Virus record (IMG/VR): IMGVR_UViG_3300028591_000142
Coordinates: 34,301 to 98,300 of that record
Strand: one strand, 5' to 3'
DNA: 64,000 nucleotides
Source: a virus
Lineage: Duplodnaviria > Caudoviricetes
Positions 21,737 to 31,446 of the stretch are shown here, one piece after another; positions within the stretch are counted from its first letter, which is position 1, and each line of letters starts with the position of its first letter. The notes under the pieces are model-generated. The model was given only the letters and a program-made list of their open reading frames with translations, was not told the origin of the DNA and searched no databases. The translations under genes were made by a program, and so were the position numbers.

Positions 21737-23563
21737 TTATAAACAGAATCCAAAGCAAACGCTGATAAACGAAGTCGCGCTTCCGTTAGCAGCACCGCCA
21801 TTAGTACCATTTATACAAATTACATATGCGTTGTTGTCAGGTCTTCTCATTCTACTTCTTGTTAAATATGAAGTATTTGCTAAGCTACTAGACTTTTTTC
21901 TACTTGTGGCGTCCGGAAATCTTGCGTATTGTGCACCCTGAGTCTTTCTTTCATAATAAGAACCCAAGTCAGCATCTACCGGGTTGGTAACTATTACATA
22001 TACATTGTCCTCAAGTTTATAATAAGTTTTACTAGATTCAACGGTAGTATCAGATGTCAAGAAGTAATACTCTGATAAATACATCTCTTTGCTCTGGTAA
22101 ATATAAGTCAACAAACCCAATTCACCTAGCGACGGGATGAATATTTTGTCTTTTACTGTTTGTATGCTGGTATTATCGTCATAGTCCTTATCTACTATCT
22201 TGATAGCCTTTTGTAGATTTTCCGGGAAAGATTTATAAACATCCCATAACATTTTTCTTAAGGTACATCCGTATATTAATTTATCGTTTGCATCTACGTC
22301 AAGAGAAACCTTGTAAATATCTCCGCTAGCTGCACCCCATCCACCGTTATTACCGGTGCCGGGAGTGGTGTCGCTTGTGGTGAGAGCATTATATCTATAA
22401 GAGTAATTCAACCATCTACCAATAAATGTTAAGGCAGCTTTATTATTATGAGTTAACTTAGTTAAAACTAATGTAAACTCATCGCCTGCGGCAATATTCC
22501 ACCTCCACGATGCTGTGTCACTGGGCAATATAGATGTTGTTCCGCCAGAATAACTAATCTTACCACCGTCGACTATTATAAAATTTCCATTATCATAATA
22601 TAAAATATTATATCCGTCGAACATTTCTGACACATCAGCTCCGGCATATACGGTCATTGTGTTTTCAAAAAGCTTTACTCCGTTTGAGTAGACTTTACCC
22701 GTATATACATCTCCGACATTAAGTTTTGAACTTAAATTAACATCGCCATAGGTAAGATAATCCTCACCAAGCGTACCATCCCGATTTACAATTTCCATCT
22801 TACTTAAAATATCGTGTTCTTTACCAGTAACTTCAAGCTGAATTGCCATCGGAATACCGCAAGGTCTACTGCTTTCTGATGTAAGATAATTAAACTCCAG
22901 AGTCTTAGTATCACCTATATTGTAAAAATCAGTACCATATCTATCTGCGTTTGCCATAATGGTTTCCCAGTCATCTTCAATTGTGTCTCCCCATTTTACA
23001 GTTGACCTTTCGGTCTTAGCGACTTTGTGTGCGACAATCGTTTGTCTGTATGATAAGCCAACACCCCATCTCCACGATGCTGTTTCGCTCGGTGATATTG
23101 AAATAGGCGTAGTCGAATAATTAAATGAACCATTTTTCACGACGGTGACAAGTTTTGTCTTTTCAAAATATGTACTAAGACCTGCCGCTGTTGGAGACTG
23201 AATAGCCGTATAAACACCAGCAAATAAACCGTAATATGTTTTACCAGACACAACACTTGTGTCTGTCGTAGGAAGATATTTTGTAAAATCCAAAACATCA
23301 TAACCAGAATATATATCCTCGCCAGCTTCTGCATATACATCGGTTTCAAACCAAACGGCATCTTGATTATTAAGCACAGAAATGTGATATTTATCACCGA
23401 CCTCAAAATCAATCGACGTATCAAATTCGCCATATACATAATTATCTATGCCCATCGTGCCACCTGTGTTCAGTATAGTAAAATCGGTGGGTATAGGCGG
23501 AACGGGGGTTTCACCACCAGCAGCTTTAGAACCTATCACAAAGCTTAAAACATCAATAGCCAT
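21737..23563 (-). CDS. Putative receptor-binding protein with a C-terminal DUF6273/C-type-lectin-like domain and inserted modules
   Basis: GGW...LR...LQKAIKIVDK...DKIFIPS.GELG...YLTRS...VCFGFCL pattern. Confidence 0.65.
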   Translation of the reverse strand: MAIDVLSFVIGSKAAGGETPVPPIPTDFTILNTGGTMGIDNYVYGEFDTSIDFEVGDKYHISVLNNQDAVWFETDVYAEAGEDIYSGYDVLDFTKYLPTTDTSVVSGKTYYGLFAGVYTAIQSPTAAGLSTYFEKTKLVTVVKNGSFNYSTTPISISPSETASWRWGVGLSYRQTIVAHKVAKTERSTVKWGDTIEDDWETIMANADRYGTDFYNIGDTKTLEFNYLTSESSRPCGIPMAIQLEVTGKEHDILSKMEIVNRDGTLGEDYLTYGDVNLSSKLNVGDVYTGKVYSNGVKLFENTMTVYAGADVSEMFDGYNILYYDNGNFIIVDGGKISYSGGTTSILPSDTASWRWNIAAGDEFTLVLTKLTHNNKAALTFIGRWLNYSYRYNALTTSDTTPGTGNNGGWGAASGDIYKVSLDVDANDKLIYGCTLRKMLWDVYKSFPENLQKAIKIVDKDYDDNTSIQTVKDKIFIPSLGELGLLTYIYQSKEMYLSEYYFLTSDTTVESSKTYYKLEDNVYVIVTNPVDADLGSYYERKTQGAQYARFPDATSRKKSSSLANTSYLTRSRMRRPDNNAYVICINGTNGGAANGSATSFISVCFGFCL

Positions 23564-23564
23564 T

Positions 23565-24527
23565 TTATCCCTCCTGATTACTTACCTCGTCATTGCAGGG
23601 CACAGCGTCAATTCTTATAGGTATTGGTTTAACGCGCCAGATAAAACTGGTTAAGTTATTTAAATCAAAGTACGCGTTTACAAAATCAATTACTTCCTGT
23701 CTCTGTTCTTCTGTAATGTCTAAATTAGTACCTACGATTTTAAAATCTAACGAATGTCTGAAACCACTTGATACAGAATCCCAACCTTCCGATATAGTAT
23801 AAGTAATATCACAGGGATAGGTGTCGTTAATTTCAGAAGTTATATCATCTATAGTATATAAGGTTCCGCTATAATCAAAGAACAGGGTGTCAATTTCCTC
23901 TTCTGTTACCACACCTCCCATTCCTGTTGGCGGGTGTGGGTTTGTAGTAAAGTTTTTAATCTCCCATCCATCATCATTACTTATGTTAAAATAAAAATTC
24001 GCACGTAATACAGTGTTTTTCGGACTTATATTAACATAACGGCTGAATAGTTCAGAGTTTTCGTTTGTGTCAACCCATACATCATACCCAACACTTCTTG
24101 TTAAGTCTGAATTAGTTTTTTCTAACGATACTTTCATTTCGTTAATTTCAGCACTTAGCAGCTCTATACTTGTATAATGTACGTTCTCACTATATTCATA
24201 ATCATCCGGCACAGCTCGCTTAATAATAGGAATTTTGATAGTGTCGGAGGTTCTATATGCTTTTTCACCTGTTTCAGAATACAGATAAATGAACATAGCT
24301 TCAGGATACTTAAATAATATATTGGGTATAGAAACCGTAATACTATGTTCGTCAATAATAGAAGGTGCTACAACAAATGCTGTGGGAAATGTTCTACTGG
24401 TAAAATGTACCATCATATTTTCTGTATTAAAAATATTTGTTATCTTTAATACCTGATTAACATCCCATTGATACATCTCGGTAATCGGATTATCATAAAT
24501 ATCAAGCACCTTGATTTTATTATCCAT
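23565..24527 (-). CDS. Baseplate-upper (BppU-like) tail protein
   Basis: N-terminal MYQWDVNQVLKI...IPN...IPIIKRAVPDDY pattern. Confidence 0.6.
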   Translation of the reverse strand: MDNKIKVLDIYDNPITEMYQWDVNQVLKITNIFNTENMMVHFTSRTFPTAFVVAPSIIDEHSITVSIPNILFKYPEAMFIYLYSETGEKAYRTSDTIKIPIIKRAVPDDYEYSENVHYTSIELLSAEINEMKVSLEKTNSDLTRSVGYDVWVDTNENSELFSRYVNISPKNTVLRANFYFNISNDDGWEIKNFTTNPHPPTGMGGVVTEEEIDTLFFDYSGTLYTIDDITSEINDTYPCDITYTISEGWDSVSSGFRHSLDFKIVGTNLDITEEQRQEVIDFVNAYFDLNNLTSFIWRVKPIPIRIDAVPCNDEVSNQEG

Positions 24528-24556
24528 ATTTTTACTCCTTTCTTTTATTTATATAT

Positions 24557-24590
24557 AAAACCACGCTTTGGTACACAGAGCGTGGTTTTA
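24557..24590. terminator. Stem-loop
   Basis: AAAACCACGCTTTG...CAGAGCGTGGTTTT. Confidence 0.6.
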
Positions 24591-24599
24591 TTATGTTTG

Positions 24600-27110
24600 T
24601 TACACACCATATACCCAGGCTAAAACCCAGTTATCATTATCGGTCGCCATTACCCGGTTTGTTACCCAGGTAAATGGGTTGTTATTAAACAAATGACCGC
24701 GAATTACGGTTTTACCATAATCCGACGCATATGTTCCAGTGTCATCCGATTCTTTATAAATATATAAATATTTGTGTCCTAGTCTAGTATACCAATAGTC
24801 AGGGTCTCCAGTACCGGTTGATGTGTGGTGTGCCGGGGATGCCATTATAAACGGGTATCCAAATCCACTACCTAACGATGTGGAACCAGCGGAGATAATA
24901 TTTTTGGGTATAAAAAATGACACCCTATTTGTGCCAATCGAGTCACCAGCACCCTTAAAACAAATACATAATCCGTGTGTTTGGTCTTGCACTCTTTCTG
25001 AAAGCACAATTCTTTCGTCCCCGGTCATTTGTTTTCCGTCAGACAAACCTAAATTATAATAACTCCATAATACGTGATTATTGTGGTTTGGTGCGTTAAA
25101 ATCTCCAACTACACTAAAGTCTCCATTGACTCTAAAATCGTTTTCACCCCAGTCAAAAACAGGTATACCCTTTTGAACAGTAGTCGTATAACTTAGTGAT
25201 GTAAGAGTTACATCTTTATATTCTTCCAAAAACGGGAACCACACATTTGAGTTACCATCTTTTGCATATATTTTAAACTGATAACTTTTTCTATAATCAA
25301 ATGTTTCTGGTAACTCTATTACATTACTATCCGGGGTTTGTCCGTCTGTAGAGCGATATGTTGTAGCCCCGGTTAAAATATTATTTGCGTTAATATAATT
25401 AATTGGGCTATAACTTCCAGTACCAGCTTCTCTATACTGATATCCTATTTTAATTTCATTACTATAGCTTCCGCCAAAATCATCTAAAAACGCATTACCG
25501 CTAAATGTAAGTTTTATAGTATTGTCTGTCGGATTTTCTCTATACAATTTATATTTAAATGTCAAAGGTGTGTATGATATAGACTCACCAGACGGCTGTA
25601 TTGTAAGTGGTGTGTTTTTGTATCCCCTTGAGTCTGTGACCTCGATATTGAAACTGGTTGCTAAAGAACCAATATAACCTATTTCCGATATTGGTGAGAC
25701 ACTAGGAATATATTCATTATTTACCTTAATTGATTCGATATCGGCTCCATATTTTACTGTCGTATTAATAGTAAGTTGCGCCAATGAGTAACCTGGTATT
25801 AAAATATTCTCACTCTCAGTAAGATTCACCATATCGCTTGTGTCGATAACCGTACCTGTCACAACAGGCCTGCTCTCAGACTCTTTTGTCTTTACGTTAA
25901 ACGTAGACGTCGTACTACCTAATGCACTACTAGCACTACTAGATGTATATGTGTAGCAAGTAAGCGTGCAAACTTCAGATTGCTTATTAGGCATCCAGTT
26001 AAAAAACGTTGTTGCTGTGGCAAGAGAAAACGATGTCGCTACAAACTTAGACTCAGTAGAACTTAAAGAGCCCACGCCGTCGCTAACACTAATCCACCAG
26101 GTTTTACTACCAACCTTTGCCTTGATACTATGATAGTATGATGTATTGTACCGCGTAACTGTAACGGTAATAGAGCCAGTTGCGCCAGACATATCACCAC
26201 TAGATTTCGCAGTGGTTAATAGCTGTTTCCCGCTAACTACTACAGTAGTATTACCAGATACAGTGTACGTGTTTCCACTAGTAAATGTCGAACCATTAAC
26301 CGTGTGTGTGTCTACTTGATACGTACTTGATGAAACAGAAAATGTTATTTGTAATTTATCATTTTTGTACAACACAGCGTTATTTGATAAGTTACCGGTA
26401 CTTCCGTAATTAGATGACGTCCTCTTGACTGTTACTTGTCCATACGAGGATGTGGATATGGTTAATTTATATGTTTGTTCTGCGCTAGACGTTACAGAAA
26501 CATTTCCAGATACAGTGTGGGTGTTCCCAGATGTGAATGATGAGTTATTAACCTTATGAGATGATACGATAAAACCACTATCAGCCCCAAATGAGATTTC
26601 TAATTTATCACCTTTGTATAATCTCGTGCCGTCGGCTATATTTCCAATAGAAGCACCGGTATAACCGGATGATGTTCTGTTTACTGTTATTTTTGAATGA
26701 GAGTCGGCGGATATATCTAGCGTATATGTATCTATTTTTGTAAGGTCGATTGTTCCTCCATAATCCTGAACAGTGCTATTATAAACCTGAGTTTTAAAAA
26801 CGACAGTTACGCCTGTCTTTGTACCGTTTGCATTATGAGTTACCGTTATTTTACCAGATGTACTACCAGTCTTTGCTGGAAATACCTCGTCACTCCAAGA
26901 TGTTTCACCTTTATGATAAACCTGTGTCCCGTTTATCTTAACAGTTGTTTCAGCTATACTATAAAATGTAGCAGAGCCACCAGAAGACTTTAATGTCCAG
27001 TTGAGCGTTGATGTATTTTTATCGGCATTAACCGTCTCTGATATTGTTAGTGTTAATTTACGCCCGCTATATGTGTTACTTGTAAACGTATGTGGTAGAC
27101 TATATGCCAT
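24600..27110 (-). CDS. Siphovirus tail-tip structural protein (DUF859-like) with two ~85-aa internal repeats
   Basis: S/T-rich beta sequence, VTDSRG and PVFDWGENDF motifs; tandem TY.L.IS...RTSS...FTSGNT.TVSGN. Confidence 0.65.
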   Translation of the reverse strand: MAYSLPHTFTSNTYSGRKLTLTISETVNADKNTSTLNWTLKSSGGSATFYSIAETTVKINGTQVYHKGETSWSDEVFPAKTGSTSGKITVTHNANGTKTGVTVVFKTQVYNSTVQDYGGTIDLTKIDTYTLDISADSHSKITVNRTSSGYTGASIGNIADGTRLYKGDKLEISFGADSGFIVSSHKVNNSSFTSGNTHTVSGNVSVTSSAEQTYKLTISTSSYGQVTVKRTSSNYGSTGNLSNNAVLYKNDKLQITFSVSSSTYQVDTHTVNGSTFTSGNTYTVSGNTTVVVSGKQLLTTAKSSGDMSGATGSITVTVTRYNTSYYHSIKAKVGSKTWWISVSDGVGSLSSTESKFVATSFSLATATTFFNWMPNKQSEVCTLTCYTYTSSSASSALGSTTSTFNVKTKESESRPVVTGTVIDTSDMVNLTESENILIPGYSLAQLTINTTVKYGADIESIKVNNEYIPSVSPISEIGYIGSLATSFNIEVTDSRGYKNTPLTIQPSGESISYTPLTFKYKLYRENPTDNTIKLTFSGNAFLDDFGGSYSNEIKIGYQYREAGTGSYSPINYINANNILTGATTYRSTDGQTPDSNVIELPETFDYRKSYQFKIYAKDGNSNVWFPFLEEYKDVTLTSLSYTTTVQKGIPVFDWGENDFRVNGDFSVVGDFNAPNHNNHVLWSYYNLGLSDGKQMTGDERIVLSERVQDQTHGLCICFKGAGDSIGTNRVSFFIPKNIISAGSTSLGSGFGYPFIMASPAHHTSTGTGDPDYWYTRLGHKYLYIYKESDDTGTYASDYGKTVIRGHLFNNNPFTWVTNRVMATDNDNWVLAWVYGV

Positions 27111-27124
27111 TTTTCACACTCCTT

Positions 27125-30100
27125 TTACTCATTTTCACCTATATAAAAACAACCAGTTCTTTCATTATTTGAACCATAGTCTTCAAACCTACTATTTGTA
27201 CCAACAATTAAATATTGTCTTGATGTTAAGTTTAATGCGTTTACACCATCTACTCTAGCGCTTAAGACCATCTCATCAACCTGTTCATAGTATGTGCTTA
27301 TTGCACTATCTACCGGGTTTGTAACTACCTGATAATCATCTCTGACACGCTGATAATACGTTTTATTTGGATTGACGGTCGTATCTTCTGTTAAAACATA
27401 ATTTCCAGAACTTCTGGATACATACATACCGGTTTCATCTACTTTGTTCTTTATATTATTTGCAGAATCAGTAATGTTTAGACCATCATCATTAAGTGTA
27501 AACCTCTTTTCCTTTGTTGTAACGTGGTCTGGTTCAGAGTTTTCTAGGTTTTGAACACTGATAGTTAAGTCTTTTGACGTTGTTTCTAGTGATAATAATC
27601 TGCCATCAGTATCTCCAACGGCAGCAGATATTTTTCCATCAACTATATCAAATAACGTCTTCTTTTCGGTTTCACTCTCTCTCTCGTAGTATGTATCAAT
27701 GTCTTGGTCTACAGGGTTATCCACAACTACATATTCCCCATCCACGTACTGATAATATGTCTTACTCGTATCTACGGTTGTATCTGATGTTAATACATAT
27801 GTCTCTGGTGTATAAGAATATATTTGCAAATTATTCCCTATAAGCACTTCTCCTATAATAGCTTCTCCGTTTACACCGTAAACAGTCTCACCATTACCAA
27901 GATTTAACTCACCAAGAGCGAGTTTACTTGTATCCCATCCGTCATTGGTAAATGCAATATTTGAACTTATTATTTTAATTTGGTGTGGGTCGAGCTCTCC
28001 GGTGTCTTCGTTTATCCTTCTTCCGGTATAACCGGCGGCATCAATAATAACCTCCTCACCAACAGATGACATTATATCAGCTAACGTAAAGTTTCTGGAC
28101 GATTTTATGGCTTCATTCATATAATCGAGCTCACCGTTTTTAATAGGATAAATAACATCTTTTACGTAGCTCAGTGTGTTAGCAGACTTACTAACACTAC
28201 CTAAAACATTTTCAAATAATGACCTTACATCATATTTATTTAATCTGTTACCGAATGTTAGACTAAAGTCTTTATCGTCATAGTTAATTGTCATTGAGGT
28301 TAAAAACAAAGATGCTATGTCGTTATTACGTAGTTCAACATTAATTATACAGCCAGTCTCAATACTATCGCTAAAATGTTTAAACTTTTTTGAAAAGATA
28401 AAATTTTCAACATCAATGCTAAATTCTTGTGTCGGAACCGACACTTTACCGAGTTGTAGCATAGCTCTGTCATACAAAATTTTCATCTGTGCGAACTTTT
28501 CACCATATGACATCTGGTCTGTAAAAACAACATAATCATCATTATAGCTACCCTGAAATATATAATTATTTAACTCAGCAAGCTCATCTGATGAAAAATA
28601 TGTATTAAACGAAAGCTCCTCTCTGATACCATTAATATTATCCAAGTCGTTATTAATGGCGTTGTTTATCATATCCAGTTCCCCGTATTCAGAATCAAGT
28701 TCGTCTTGGTAACTGGATATATAACCCTTAATATCTGACTTTAATTCATTTATTGACTTATTGATATCAATCTCAGGCGCGTGTTTGTCGAGATTGTTAA
28801 TAGCCGTATTATATCTGTTTATAAGTGTTTTCTTTGATTCGGCTATTATATTGTCCAAACACTGTTGGTATAAATCAATTATGCCTCTTAACCTATTAAT
28901 TTCTGCGTTGGTATTTGCCCTGGCTTGTAAATGAGTGTAATATGTGAGATTGTAATCATAATAATCGTCTCTTTGTAACTCAATCAAATCTTGCCATTCT
29001 TTGACTTTGTCACCGAGTTCGTTTGACATCCAGTCAAAATAATAACTGAAATTATATATTGTATTAGTACCTAATGGGTTTATTGCAGATATCAAAACAT
29101 CATCTCCGCCGGTAACACTGATTGCTGTATATAAATCATCTGCGTTTTCAGATACCGTCGCAGAGTCTATTAAATCATTGTTAGAAAGATAAATGTTTGA
29201 AGTATGGACGTACGAGGCTTGGTCATATACATTAACCAATCTGTTTATTATATCAAAAACAATAATACACTCATATGCATCTTGAACTTGCTCCATCAAA
29301 AACGATAAGCAATTGGAGTCAACAGAAATATCATTGAATGTTCTGTATCTGGATGCAACGCTTTCATCAATATGTCCGGGTTGCCATAAGGGAATTGTTT
29401 TTAATATCTGTTCCAGTATGCCCTCTCTATCATCTCCTGGTTGTGTAACAAACGGATATGTACCATCGCTAATAAATGGAATCATTTTTTGTTGAAGTTC
29501 TATGTCAATAGATTGCGCTTCGATATCCTTGTAATAGCGGTTACCATCATATCCATCTTGTACGCTATTTATCATAAAAAAGCCAATGTCTTTAAAAAAC
29601 ACAAGACGACGATTTTGTACAGAGTCATAAACACGTTCTGCAAACTCTTCCTTGCTTTCGTGTCTGACACCGATTACTTTTATGTTTATAATGTTCGTAT
29701 TGTCAAACAAATACCCCGAACCATCACCATATGTTAACTCGTAATCATCTTGACCTATAACCTCATAATACGTATCAATATCCTGGTCTACGGGGTTGTC
29801 CACCCTAACGTATTCACTGTTTATGTACTGATAATATGCCTTGTTGGGGTTAACCGTGGTATCAGATGTTAACACGTAGTCATATACTTCCGATAATACA
29901 AAATTATCCACAACCAACGCATTATTAAAACCAGTTATAGGAATTACCAGAATAACACTGCCTGATGGAAACCCGGTAAATCCGGGTGACTGACCGGGGT
30001 CAGCCGGGTATGACCTTGTACGAATAATAGTATTATCACTAAGAGTTACCTCGACATCATATTCTTGACCAACCTCAAGGCCTAGTGTCTGTGGTAATAA

Positions 30101-30382
30101 ACCTAAGACTCTGCTTTGACCAAGCACAGTTTCGGTTATCATATTTCTACCCAACATCGTTATATCATAATATTTACTTAATTCAGATTCGTGTTTTGGC
30201 TTATTTACCCTAAAATTAAGTTCAGACGTTGCGTTAAAATTAAATACAGCCTCTTCCGCCTCGTGGTCAATAATTGGGCATACAACGTTTGATAAGACGC
30301 CGTTATTATATGTACAACCAGGGTTACATAAAACTAGTTGAGGTTTTTCTAATCTGTCAAGCGCATCATACTTAACTATCAT
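27125..30382 (-). CDS. Tail-associated (Tal/hub-like) protein
   Basis: Follows Dit; coiled coil, IAFTNDGWDTSKLALG; three copies of the 40-aa module. Confidence 0.72.
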   Translation of the reverse strand: MIVKYDALDRLEKPQLVLCNPGCTYNNGVLSNVVCPIIDHEAEEAVFNFNATSELNFRVNKPKHESELSKYYDITMLGRNMITETVLGQSRVLGLLPQTLGLEVGQEYDVEVTLSDNTIIRTRSYPADPGQSPGFTGFPSGSVILVIPITGFNNALVVDNFVLSEVYDYVLTSDTTVNPNKAYYQYINSEYVRVDNPVDQDIDTYYEVIGQDDYELTYGDGSGYLFDNTNIINIKVIGVRHESKEEFAERVYDSVQNRRLVFFKDIGFFMINSVQDGYDGNRYYKDIEAQSIDIELQQKMIPFISDGTYPFVTQPGDDREGILEQILKTIPLWQPGHIDESVASRYRTFNDISVDSNCLSFLMEQVQDAYECIIVFDIINRLVNVYDQASYVHTSNIYLSNNDLIDSATVSENADDLYTAISVTGGDDVLISAINPLGTNTIYNFSYYFDWMSNELGDKVKEWQDLIELQRDDYYDYNLTYYTHLQARANTNAEINRLRGIIDLYQQCLDNIIAESKKTLINRYNTAINNLDKHAPEIDINKSINELKSDIKGYISSYQDELDSEYGELDMINNAINNDLDNINGIREELSFNTYFSSDELAELNNYIFQGSYNDDYVVFTDQMSYGEKFAQMKILYDRAMLQLGKVSVPTQEFSIDVENFIFSKKFKHFSDSIETGCIINVELRNNDIASLFLTSMTINYDDKDFSLTFGNRLNKYDVRSLFENVLGSVSKSANTLSYVKDVIYPIKNGELDYMNEAIKSSRNFTLADIMSSVGEEVIIDAAGYTGRRINEDTGELDPHQIKIISSNIAFTNDGWDTSKLALGELNLGNGETVYGVNGEAIIGEVLIGNNLQIYSYTPETYVLTSDTTVDTSKTYYQYVDGEYVVVDNPVDQDIDTYYERESETEKKTLFDIVDGKISAAVGDTDGRLLSLETTSKDLTISVQNLENSEPDHVTTKEKRFTLNDDGLNITDSANNIKNKVDETGMYVSRSSGNYVLTEDTTVNPNKTYYQRVRDDYQVVTNPVDSAISTYYEQVDEMVLSARVDGVNALNLTSRQYLIVGTNSRFEDYGSNNERTGCFYIGENE

Positions 30383-31446
30383 TAAAATCTCCTCCTATTA
30401 TTGAATTTAAATTCAATTTCAGCCGCATTACCAAATACAGACAGTATATTATCACCATCTAATAACCTAATAAAATTTTGGCCTTCAAACAATAAATAAT
30501 AATCCTCGTTAATATATTTTATATCCCCGTCCATCATTATTGTTGCTCCCGCAGGTACATTAACAAACTTCGTATATCTTGTGTTACTATCACTATGATT
30601 ATAGATAATAATATCTCCGTTTGTATTTCCGTTTATTATCGTTACCCTCGGATAGATATATTCACTCATATCATAATCTGTTGTAACAACAATAGATGTA
30701 CTGCTATCACCTGAGTTATGAATCTCAAAAGTCTGAGTTGTTTCGTCTTCCCAAAACATATTACTATCAGCCTCAAGCGTTGCTTTATAACCTATGATGC
30801 CGTTTCCGTATTCAATTTTTTCCGGATTCAAAAATCTACAATTTAAAAATAATCTTTTTTCATCTACCGGTGCCGGCGGGTCGTCCGTTTTTACAATATT
30901 AACGTCTACACTTCCAACCCTAATTAGATTTCCACTACTATCATATGTTAACGGAATGGTCTCGCCCTTATAATTAACCGATACTATATTACCATCCACG
31001 ACGTTTGGAATAAGCGTATAAGAATCTCCGAGCGTATCAGTAATAATATAAGAATGAGTGTCGTTTATGACCCAAGTATCAATATCATAGTTAGAAAGTC
31101 CATCGCCAGTCACGATATAACCACTTTCACAGACCTCTCCGTCTATAAAATATAACCTATAATATCTAGCCCTGTTAAAGAGCCACTTTTCAATTTGTCT
31201 TCTTTCGTTTTCGGGGATAACGCTCCCATTATATGTCATTATCTCTACTTCAAACGATAGGGGAGAGTCAGTATAGTCATCGTCGACTAAATAACGAGAC
31301 TTATCAGCTTTGTTAAATATTGACACACTATTTACATCGCCAGAAAGTTTTATAAATCTCGACGTGTCAAGGTTAGCAAATACTAGCCCATATTGCTGTG
31401 ACAGTTTTTCTCCGTACTGAAAATATGTGCCATAAATATCAGCCAT
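30382..31446 (-). CDS. Distal tail protein (Dit) with internal insertion
   Basis: Follows tape measure; FQYG..SQQYGL, IEKWL, FIRLLDGDN motifs. Confidence 0.72.
   Translation of the reverse strand: MADIYGTYFQYGEKLSQQYGLVFANLDTSRFIKLSGDVNSVSIFNKADKSRYLVDDDYTDSPLSFEVEIMTYNGSVIPENERRQIEKWLFNRARYYRLYFIDGEVCESGYIVTGDGLSNYDIDTWVINDTHSYIITDTLGDSYTLIPNVVDGNIVSVNYKGETIPLTYDSSGNLIRVGSVDVNIVKTDDPPAPVDEKRLFLNCRFLNPEKIEYGNGIIGYKATLEADSNMFWEDETTQTFEIHNSGDSSTSIVVTTDYDMSEYIYPRVTIINGNTNGDIIIYNHSDSNTRYTKFVNVPAGATIMMDGDIKYINEDYYLLFEGQNFIRLLDGDNILSVFGNAAEIEFKFNNRRRF

Follow-up and report, generated by a model that had tools for sequence, protein, structure and literature searches.

Two tail genes of a Caudoviricetes gut phage, P0001 and P0002, carry between them five in-frame copies of a tyrosine-rich module of 40 amino acids (aa). 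They lie in a 64,000-nucleotide (nt) stretch of DNA (the window), which comprises bases 34301–98300 of the 98.3-kb IMG/VR viral record IMGVR_UViG_3300028591_000142 (estimated to be 83% complete). P0001 encodes a receptor-binding protein (RBP)-like tail protein and P0002 a Tal-like tail-tip protein. The explanation that we favour overall, with a probability of roughly 0.6, is that the copies belong to an undescribed family of surface modules of about 40 aa, spliced in frame on several occasions into exposed loops of proteins of the virion and the cell surface. Judged by sequence comparison, these are very probably autonomous insertion modules.

The five copies

A search of the ORF translations places two copies in P0001 and three in P0002, at the positions originally predicted to within 1–3 nt (Table 1). 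All five are 40 aa long, lie on the minus strand and are in frame. Each combines an N half (Y-x-L-T-x-D-T-x5-K-x-Y-Y) with a C half (Y-x2-V-x2-P-x4-I/L-x2-Y-Y-E), and 12 columns are invariant (Y1, T4, D6, T7, V9, K13, Y15, Y16, Y23, P29, Y37 and E39). The similarity is not due to chance, since BLASTP between copies of different proteins gives E = 7e-10 and 2e-4 and a profile of the five finds 603 matches elsewhere (see below). A six-frame profile search of the window and of the entire 98.3-kb record found no sixth copy. Copy 1 of P0001 is a divergent subtype (‘TSVVSGKTYY...AGLSTYFEK’). Net charge is between −3 and −7 in four of the five copies, and the family mean is −4.2.

The copies share 51–86 of their 120 nt. 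The closest pair, the P0002 copies beginning at residues 169 and 862, is identical at 31 of 40 residues and 86 of 120 bases, and 15 of the 31 codons for identical residues differ in bases. By the Nei-Gojobori method, the proportion of synonymous differences (pS) is 0.67–1.0 over all copy pairs, which is saturated, and the proportion of nonsynonymous differences (pN) is 0.13–0.49. These values bear out the earlier suggestion that synonymous divergence reflects protein-level selection, and they indicate that the module is under purifying selection at the protein level.

Presence and absence in homologues

P0001 has a single homologue among 5.8 billion clusters, P0069 (565 aa, 57% identity). The two proteins are colinear save for a clean 43-aa gap in P0069 that corresponds exactly to the copy in the lectin-like domain, confirming that this copy interrupts the domain between IPSLGELG and GAQYARF. 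P0069 retains copy 1, the N-terminal one, with 36 of 40 residues identical. The Pfam PF19789 (DUF6273) match in P0001 takes up 154 residues for 116 profile positions, so the lectin-domain copy is extra relative to the DUF6273 family. Within P0001, alignment of the paralogous domains A and B (BLASTP E = 3e-11) shows a 40-aa gap exactly at the module. Scans of genome, metagenome and viral contig collections turned up no relative.

For P0002, five IMG/VR Tal orthologues (L006–L010; 812–840 aa, ~52% identity) carry none of the three copies. Their alignments have clean gaps in place of b and d, and copy a is gone together with a whole accessory domain of ~180 aa; module halves were not detectable anywhere across the L006–L010 loci. 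Of 119 further Tal homologues, 118 (811–843 aa) are without the module. The exception is P0155 (1152 aa), which has two tandem modules at site b and a further two elsewhere (site c); its sites a and d are empty. At site d every homologue, P0155 included, has a short variable loop with a clean 40-aa gap in place of the module.

P0155 is also the only one of the 119 to have the ~180-aa accessory N-terminal domain, which is module-free there. At site a (residues ~168–182) it has just a 13-residue stretch, CILTDSTEPGWIK, in place of the module. This stretch looks like the beginning of an N half fused to the last part of the C-half variant ‘GWYE’ described below, and the site could be either a collapsed module or a proto-site.

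Across the orthologue and paralogue comparisons, the gaps at every module site are clean and 40–48 aa long. Presence or absence is thus clean at all insertion points in P0069, domain B, L006–L010 and the 119 Tal homologues; none of these carries the segments at the same positions as an integral part of the protein. The segment comes and goes as the discrete unit that had been proposed. Because L006–L010 and 118 of the 119 homologues are module-free and the sites in P0155 are partly different, modules have been gained and duplicated at four or more sites within the Tal family.

A family beyond this phage

A profile hidden Markov model (HMM) built from the five copies was searched against 1.84 billion representative sequences and recovered 603 protein clusters at E ≤ 1e-3, of which 123 reach E ≤ 1e-10 and 11 reach E ≤ 1e-30. 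The matched proteins are 151–7691 aa long, with up to 11 credible stretches apiece. One match was set aside: P0027 (labelled Amblyomma americanum, 1645 aa) has 17 partial matches to the first half of the profile and no strict motif, and is probably a spurious compositional hit.

Pfam, NCBIfam and PHROGs contain no model that recognises the module, whether the query is an isolated copy or one of ten strong external matches. The best PDB sequence match is to the SlpX/SlpA hairpin (8aol) at a sub-threshold E = 0.31. One of the five copies matches Pfam SlpA at E = 0.021, with 15.4 bits where the cutoff is 23; we treat this sub-threshold similarity as a lead only. A literature search on the motif and on tyrosine-rich tail-fibre repeats returned nothing relevant, and an ESM Atlas search returned unnamed viral clusters only, with scores ≤0.83. 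A match to a characterised repeat family had been named as an outcome that would speak against a new module; none appeared in Pfam, NCBIfam, PHROGs or the PDB, and the family therefore seems to be an undescribed one.

The host contexts are unrelated, as originally noted. In this phage they are a beta-rich repeat domain, the DUF6273 domain, the Tal accessory domain and the Tal C-terminal extension (two sites); examples from other sources are fibres, capsid proteins and S-layer homology (SLH) proteins. The fibres (P0084, P0014, P0004, P0074 and others; 420–690 aa) form a large family with a common layout: an OB-like N-domain, an Ala-rich coiled coil of ~100 residues, nested arrays of module halves, a short helix and a C-terminal domain. 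The C-terminal domain ends in ‘...NGxLSLKWIG’. Modules also occur in giant tail proteins with Prophage_tail and Phage_Tail_Tip domains, in a DUF6711 protein and in proteins with Flg_new and YadA_head domains.

Two HK97-type major capsid proteins (P0326 and P0322; Phage_capsid_4) have one module each, at the same site. In P0326 the module is an insertion of ~43 aa relative to the solved capsid chain 9m66_A: residues 8–213 and 269–315 align to residues 3–206 and 219–265 of that chain. The module is presumably displayed on the capsid surface. Nor is it confined to phage proteins, since SLH-anchored bacterial proteins carry it. These proteins (P0286, P0342 and ~45 related clusters from metagenome-assembled genomes of Eubacteriales; ~1850–1950 aa) have one to three modules. 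One is named by NCBI ‘S-layer homology domain-containing protein [Eubacteriales bacterium]’, and one of the clusters has 427 member sequences.

We also ran tblastn against 50,697 GenBank phage records with P0001, the fibre P0084, P0003 and a two-module segment of P0002 as queries. The module was matched in a single record, MT835552.1 (a faecal metagenome phage), by the two-module segment. P0001 and P0084 had no match in these records. P0003 matched phages of Ruminococcus gnavus, Enterococcus and Vibrio only through regions outside the module, and these matches were discarded. That only one GenBank phage record contains a match is probably why the module has so far gone undescribed.

Halves and nesting

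HMMs specific to each half were run on 150 matched proteins. A single NC pair is the commonest arrangement (121), followed by arrangements with nesting (17) and tandem (NC)n arrays (16). Nested arrays take forms such as NNCC, NNNCCC and NCNNNCCC. Of the 42 arrays in which N and C halves balance, 33 are properly nested (chance expectation 13.2), and most of the non-nested exceptions are CNCN strings, that is, tandem arrays in which one end half escaped detection. Whether halves pair in mirror or sequential order was examined at residues 9 and 34 in 14 nested arrays, which vary too little to discriminate.

A variant C half, ending ‘...(D/G)NP....(G)WYE’ instead of ‘...P....I..YYE’, is found in P0008, P0020 and loci L015, L016 and L020. 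Some long arrays score as N halves only because their C half is this WYE variant.

Predicted fold

We modelled the fibre P0084, which has an NNNCCC array, with AlphaFold2 and a 35-sequence family alignment. The module region has a pLDDT of 91–97. Outward strands are predicted at residues 198–201, 214–223, 235–245 and 257–261, followed by a turn at 262–265 and return strands at 266–269, 282–291, 304–313 and 326–329. The return strands mirror the outward ones (198–201/326–329, 214–223/304–313, 235–245/282–291 and 257–261/266–269). Strands on the N side are separated by loops of 11–12 residues, and loops on the C side contain a helical turn.

In mean-field covariation over 233 modules, the pairs 9–34, 14–25, 4–32, 18–23, 17–24, 16–23 and 9–29 are among the highest-ranking, which suggests a hairpin of strands 2 and 3 with the N-side and C-side loops packed against each other. 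Modules differ in length mostly after columns 19–22, the distal turn, which is also where nested copies are found; the variable positions lie in the loops and at this turn. Because the predicted secondary structure, the covariation and the length variation at the distal turn agree, the module is probably a ribbon of two strands whose two loops pack on each other and whose termini lie side by side.

In such a ribbon, the chain would run outward through strand 1, a loop and strand 2 to a tight turn at positions 19–22, and return through strand 3, a second loop (this one containing a helical turn) and strand 4. Strands 2 and 3 would form one pair and strands 1 and 4 the other. The loops would pack on each other through V/I9, P29 and I/L34, leaving conserved tyrosines on both faces of the ribbon. 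With its N- and C-termini emerging side by side, the unit would fit any surface loop. The same geometry would permit tandem repeats or, by insertion of the unit into its own distal turn, the nested NnCn stalks of the fibres.

Searches with the P0084 model (Foldseek against the PDB, and VIA-align) matched only the N-terminal OB-like domain and the coiled coil, with no PDB fold match covering the module region (residues 197–330). A search of BFVD returned only generic tail proteins with low TM-scores.

Function

We tentatively regard the modules as short, acidic, tyrosine-faced projections that would serve, by analogy with the Ig-like domains and carbohydrate-binding inserts of other phages, in decoration or low-affinity adhesion. 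Such a role is suggested by their distribution on exposed virion and bacterial surfaces, their dispensability in relatives and their conserved adjacent tyrosines. Tyr 15/16 and Tyr 37/38 are neighbours in sequence, and a two-stranded ribbon could not bury all of them. The modules are probably not the specific receptor-binding site, because they are also found on capsids and on bacterial surface proteins.

Several points count against the module family and its role as we propose them. The conserved residues could be purely structural. The acidic charge of the modules is not obviously favourable for binding to anionic Gram-positive walls. The predicted topology is based on secondary structure, symmetry of strand lengths and a small covariation set, in which several of the strong pairs involve near-invariant columns and may be artefacts. 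AlphaFold2 of P0001 with its single orthologue gave a pLDDT of 29, which is unusable for placing modules on their hosts. Finally, the distinction between gain and loss in P0001 and P0069 rests on one orthologue and the Pfam span.

A serious rival, which we consider rather unlikely, is that the module binds no ligand and is purely structural: a rigid spacer, a stabilising clasp or a contact between subunits or proteins. Ribbons might, for example, pack Tyr face to Tyr face around a three-fold axis, or join Tal to the RBP. All conserved positions are plausibly fold-determining (the Tyr ladder, T4/D6/K13/E39 and P29), the nested arrays of fibres come after a trimeric coiled coil, and two proteins of one baseplate bear modules here. 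Capsid proteins also carry the module, and capsid inserts commonly stabilise contacts between subunits. However, relatives assemble the same Tal and RBP module-free, which makes the module dispensable for assembly, and its presence on SLH-anchored proteins of the bacterial surface fits an adhesive or exposed module better. In the ribbon model, moreover, Tyr 15/16 and 37/38 face opposite sides, so some conserved tyrosines would probably be exposed.

A bolder and doubtful possibility is that the module forms a ‘lectin-like ribbon’, minimal and autonomous, whose grammar is recursive. With meeting termini and a distal turn that takes in a further copy, it would let evolution set the length of tyrosine-faced stalks (NC, NNCC, NNNCCC) on capsids, tails and S-layer proteins. 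Their ligand would be some generic glycan of the envelope or of mucus. If true, this would make the module a new fold class, the smallest known promiscuous phage adhesion module and an insertion scaffold for engineering.

The original prediction went further and raised a possible decoration or host-range system independent of reverse transcriptase (RT). As a host-range system, it would have cassettes swapped, added or removed to retarget the tail. Module number and position do differ between the two closest Tal relatives, one copy sits within a receptor-binding-type lectin domain, and the variable positions are in loops and at the distal turn. Yet the most conserved features are common to phages of presumably different hosts, to capsids and to bacterial proteins, the opposite of what a specificity determinant should show. 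The 98.3-kb record holds no donor cassette elsewhere, the copies are old (saturated pS) and there is no evidence for rapid turnover within populations. We consider this proposal improbable.

Origin and history

That the segments are ancestral and integral, and that the module-free homologues arose by deletion, is very improbable. For P0001 and P0069 the comparison involves two sequences only and would formally fit either polarity, but the 118 module-free Tal homologues come from many sources, module sites differ between P0002 and P0155, and the module is found in unrelated folds. The DUF6273 Pfam profile and the solved capsid 9m66_A, moreover, leave no room for it. A DNA-level mobile element that transposes in frame would explain copies that are dispersed, always in frame, a constant 120 bp long and tolerated by host proteins, but it is largely refuted by the limited nucleotide identity and saturated synonymous sites of the copies, by a GC content equal to that of the host genes, by the lack of terminal inverted or flanking direct repeats >8 bp (edge repeats of 6–8 nt are at chance level) and of palindromic structure or target-site duplications at the copy edges, and by amino-acid-level conservation across hundreds of distant proteins.

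The earlier statement that the module spreads as an in-frame insert accordingly holds in the sense of evolutionary domain insertion and duplication. Mobility is not supported, given the age of the copies and the absence of terminal repeats and target duplications. A retron- or RT-templated origin was also rejected as unsupported, since the 98.3-kb record contains no other module-coding sequence.

For the insertion modules that we propose, the Tal lineage would initially have been module-free and would then have gained modules at several sites. The P0002 copies are nearest to one another (26–31 of 40 residues identical, against 16–24 with the P0155 copies), and so are the P0155 copies (24–29 of 40). 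At the shared site b, copies of the two proteins are identical at 24 of 40 residues despite flanking core sequence that is ~80% identical, which points to copying within the gene or homogenisation after the lineages split. Copy 1 of P0001 matches the other copies of its own genome at 13–18 of 40 residues, the copy in the capsid protein P0326 at 29 and that in the DUF6711 protein at 23. It is a separate subtype, nearest to the capsid copy, so at least two acquisitions of the module by this phage are likely.

Comparison with known systems

Promiscuous Ig-like domains (Big_2, I-set and FN3) reportedly occur on phage capsid, tail and fibre proteins (Fraser et al., 2006). Like the module, they are small accessory units on unrelated virion proteins that come and go between close relatives, occur on bacterial surface proteins too, are dispensable for assembly and are presumed to act in weak adhesion or decoration. 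They are longer (80–100 aa against 40) and have a beta-sandwich fold, whereas the module is predicted to have four short strands and two loops; no Ig, FN3 or carbohydrate-binding module (CBM) match to it was found in Pfam. The module is also inserted internally into loops, not appended, and nests inside itself.

CBM insertions are known from the ‘evolved’ Dit and Tal proteins of Gram-positive siphophages (PMC7533335, PMC7291167, PMC10688798). These too are loop insertions in tail-tip proteins (Dit, Tal and RBP) of Firmicutes siphophages, can be nested and vary between relatives; the ~180-aa accessory domain in the N-terminus of P0002 looks like an insert of this type. They are, however, CBM or BppA-like folds of ~120–200 aa, some with demonstrated saccharide binding, whereas the module is a predicted ribbon of 40 aa that is present in capsid proteins as well.

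Rickettsia palindromic elements and other in-frame coding miniature inverted-repeat transposable elements (PMC1779305, PMC10969869) are repeats of ~100–150 bp that likewise sit in frame, non-destructively, inside many unrelated genes. The Rickettsia elements are palindromic and recognisable as DNA; copies of the module are conserved as protein only, with no DNA signature or ends.

The choline/cell-wall binding repeat (PF01473) and the SlpA/SlpX teichoic-acid-binding domain (PF03217; 8aol) are aromatic beta-hairpin repeats that bind cell walls. They share with the module ~20-residue hairpin units, rich in Tyr and other aromatic residues, on Gram-positive surfaces, and the SlpA/SlpX hairpin has a weak local match to module positions 11–28. 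PF01473 did not match the module in Pfam at E ≤ 10. Neither repeat has the two-half structure, the invariant T4/D6/K13/P29/E39 or the nesting grammar.

In the distal ‘needle’ of T4 gp37, each chain reportedly runs out to the tip and back (Bartual et al., 2010). The nested NnCn arrays of the fibres appear to run out and back in the same way, with termini meeting at the base of the monomer model. They have no sequence similarity or detected fold similarity to the needle, and its His/iron motif is absent from the module.

We place the module among the accessory modules already known to decorate phage proteins, as a new, very small, self-nesting insertion family. A definition of the family would allow segments of many gut-phage tail, fibre and capsid proteins now called ‘hypothetical’ to be annotated. 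The repeated loop insertions are unusually clean, including an insert within an insert, and can help in reading the architecture of adhesion devices. Should the ribbon model prove right, the adjacent termini of this 40-residue unit, and its tolerance of insertion into itself and into widely differing folds, would make it an attractive display scaffold or length-tunable spacer. Should it turn out to bind a glycan, no smaller accessory adhesion module would be known from phages; this is directly testable.

Locus and neighbouring genes

P0001 and P0002 sit in a minus-strand cluster of tail genes (Table 1). The core of P0002 (residues 250–856) matches phrog_6211, ‘minor tail protein’ (E = 2.6e-55), and its tblastn matches to tail endopeptidases and tail proteins of Bacillus, Lactococcus and Clostridioides phages are confined to this core. 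The accessory domain of P0002 has no Pfam match and, outside the module, no significant similarity to the domains of P0001 (E = 0.18).

Table 1. Module copies, host domains and other genes of the tail cluster (positions count from the first base of the window)
Feature	Position	Strand	Remarks
P0001, RBP-like tail protein, 608 aa	21737..23563	-	ORF list and translation
P0001 copy 1	23159..23278	-	Residues 96–135, in domain A
P0001 copy 2	21947..22066	-	Residues 500–539, inside the DUF6273 lectin-like domain
P0001 domain A	23021..23476	-	Residues ~30–181, module-bearing; BLASTP against domain B
P0001 domain B	22433..22792	-	Residues ~258–377, no module; paralogue of domain A
P0002, Tal-like tail-tip protein, 1085 aa	27125..30382	-	ORF list and translation
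P0002 copy a	29759..29878	-	Residues 169–208, nested in the accessory N-terminal domain
P0002 copy b	27680..27799	-	Residues 862–901, immediately after the conserved Tal core
P0002 copy d	27281..27400	-	Residues 995–1034, in the Tal C-terminal extension
P0002 accessory domain, ~180 aa	29639..30187	-	Residues ~66–248, within the Tal N-terminal domain
Dit-like protein	30382–31446	-	DUF6558 domains; tail cluster
Tape-measure-size open reading frame (ORF), 2025 aa	31535–37612	-	Tail cluster
836-aa tail protein		-	Tail cluster
320-aa protein		-	Tail cluster
461-aa protein		-	Tail cluster
GH25 endolysin		-	Tail cluster

P0001 consists of two paralogous beta-rich domains followed by a C-terminal DUF6273 domain, which is C-type-lectin-like (PF19789 at residues 432–585; 26.6 bits against a cutoff of 23.5) and of a kind that diversity-generating retroelements (DGRs) usually diversify. 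DUF6273 has a C-type-lectin fold that is used by targets of DGRs (PMC10743442). The last 224 nt of the P0001 gene (21737–21960) have no second copy, as a DGR template repeat would be, in the 98.3-kb record (83% complete), and a DGR link for the lectin domain is unsupported. Domains A and B form an internal duplication of ~120 aa, beta-rich units that each end in ‘...SP/PS(E/D)TASWRW’. The orthologue P0069 has the same two-domain arrangement.

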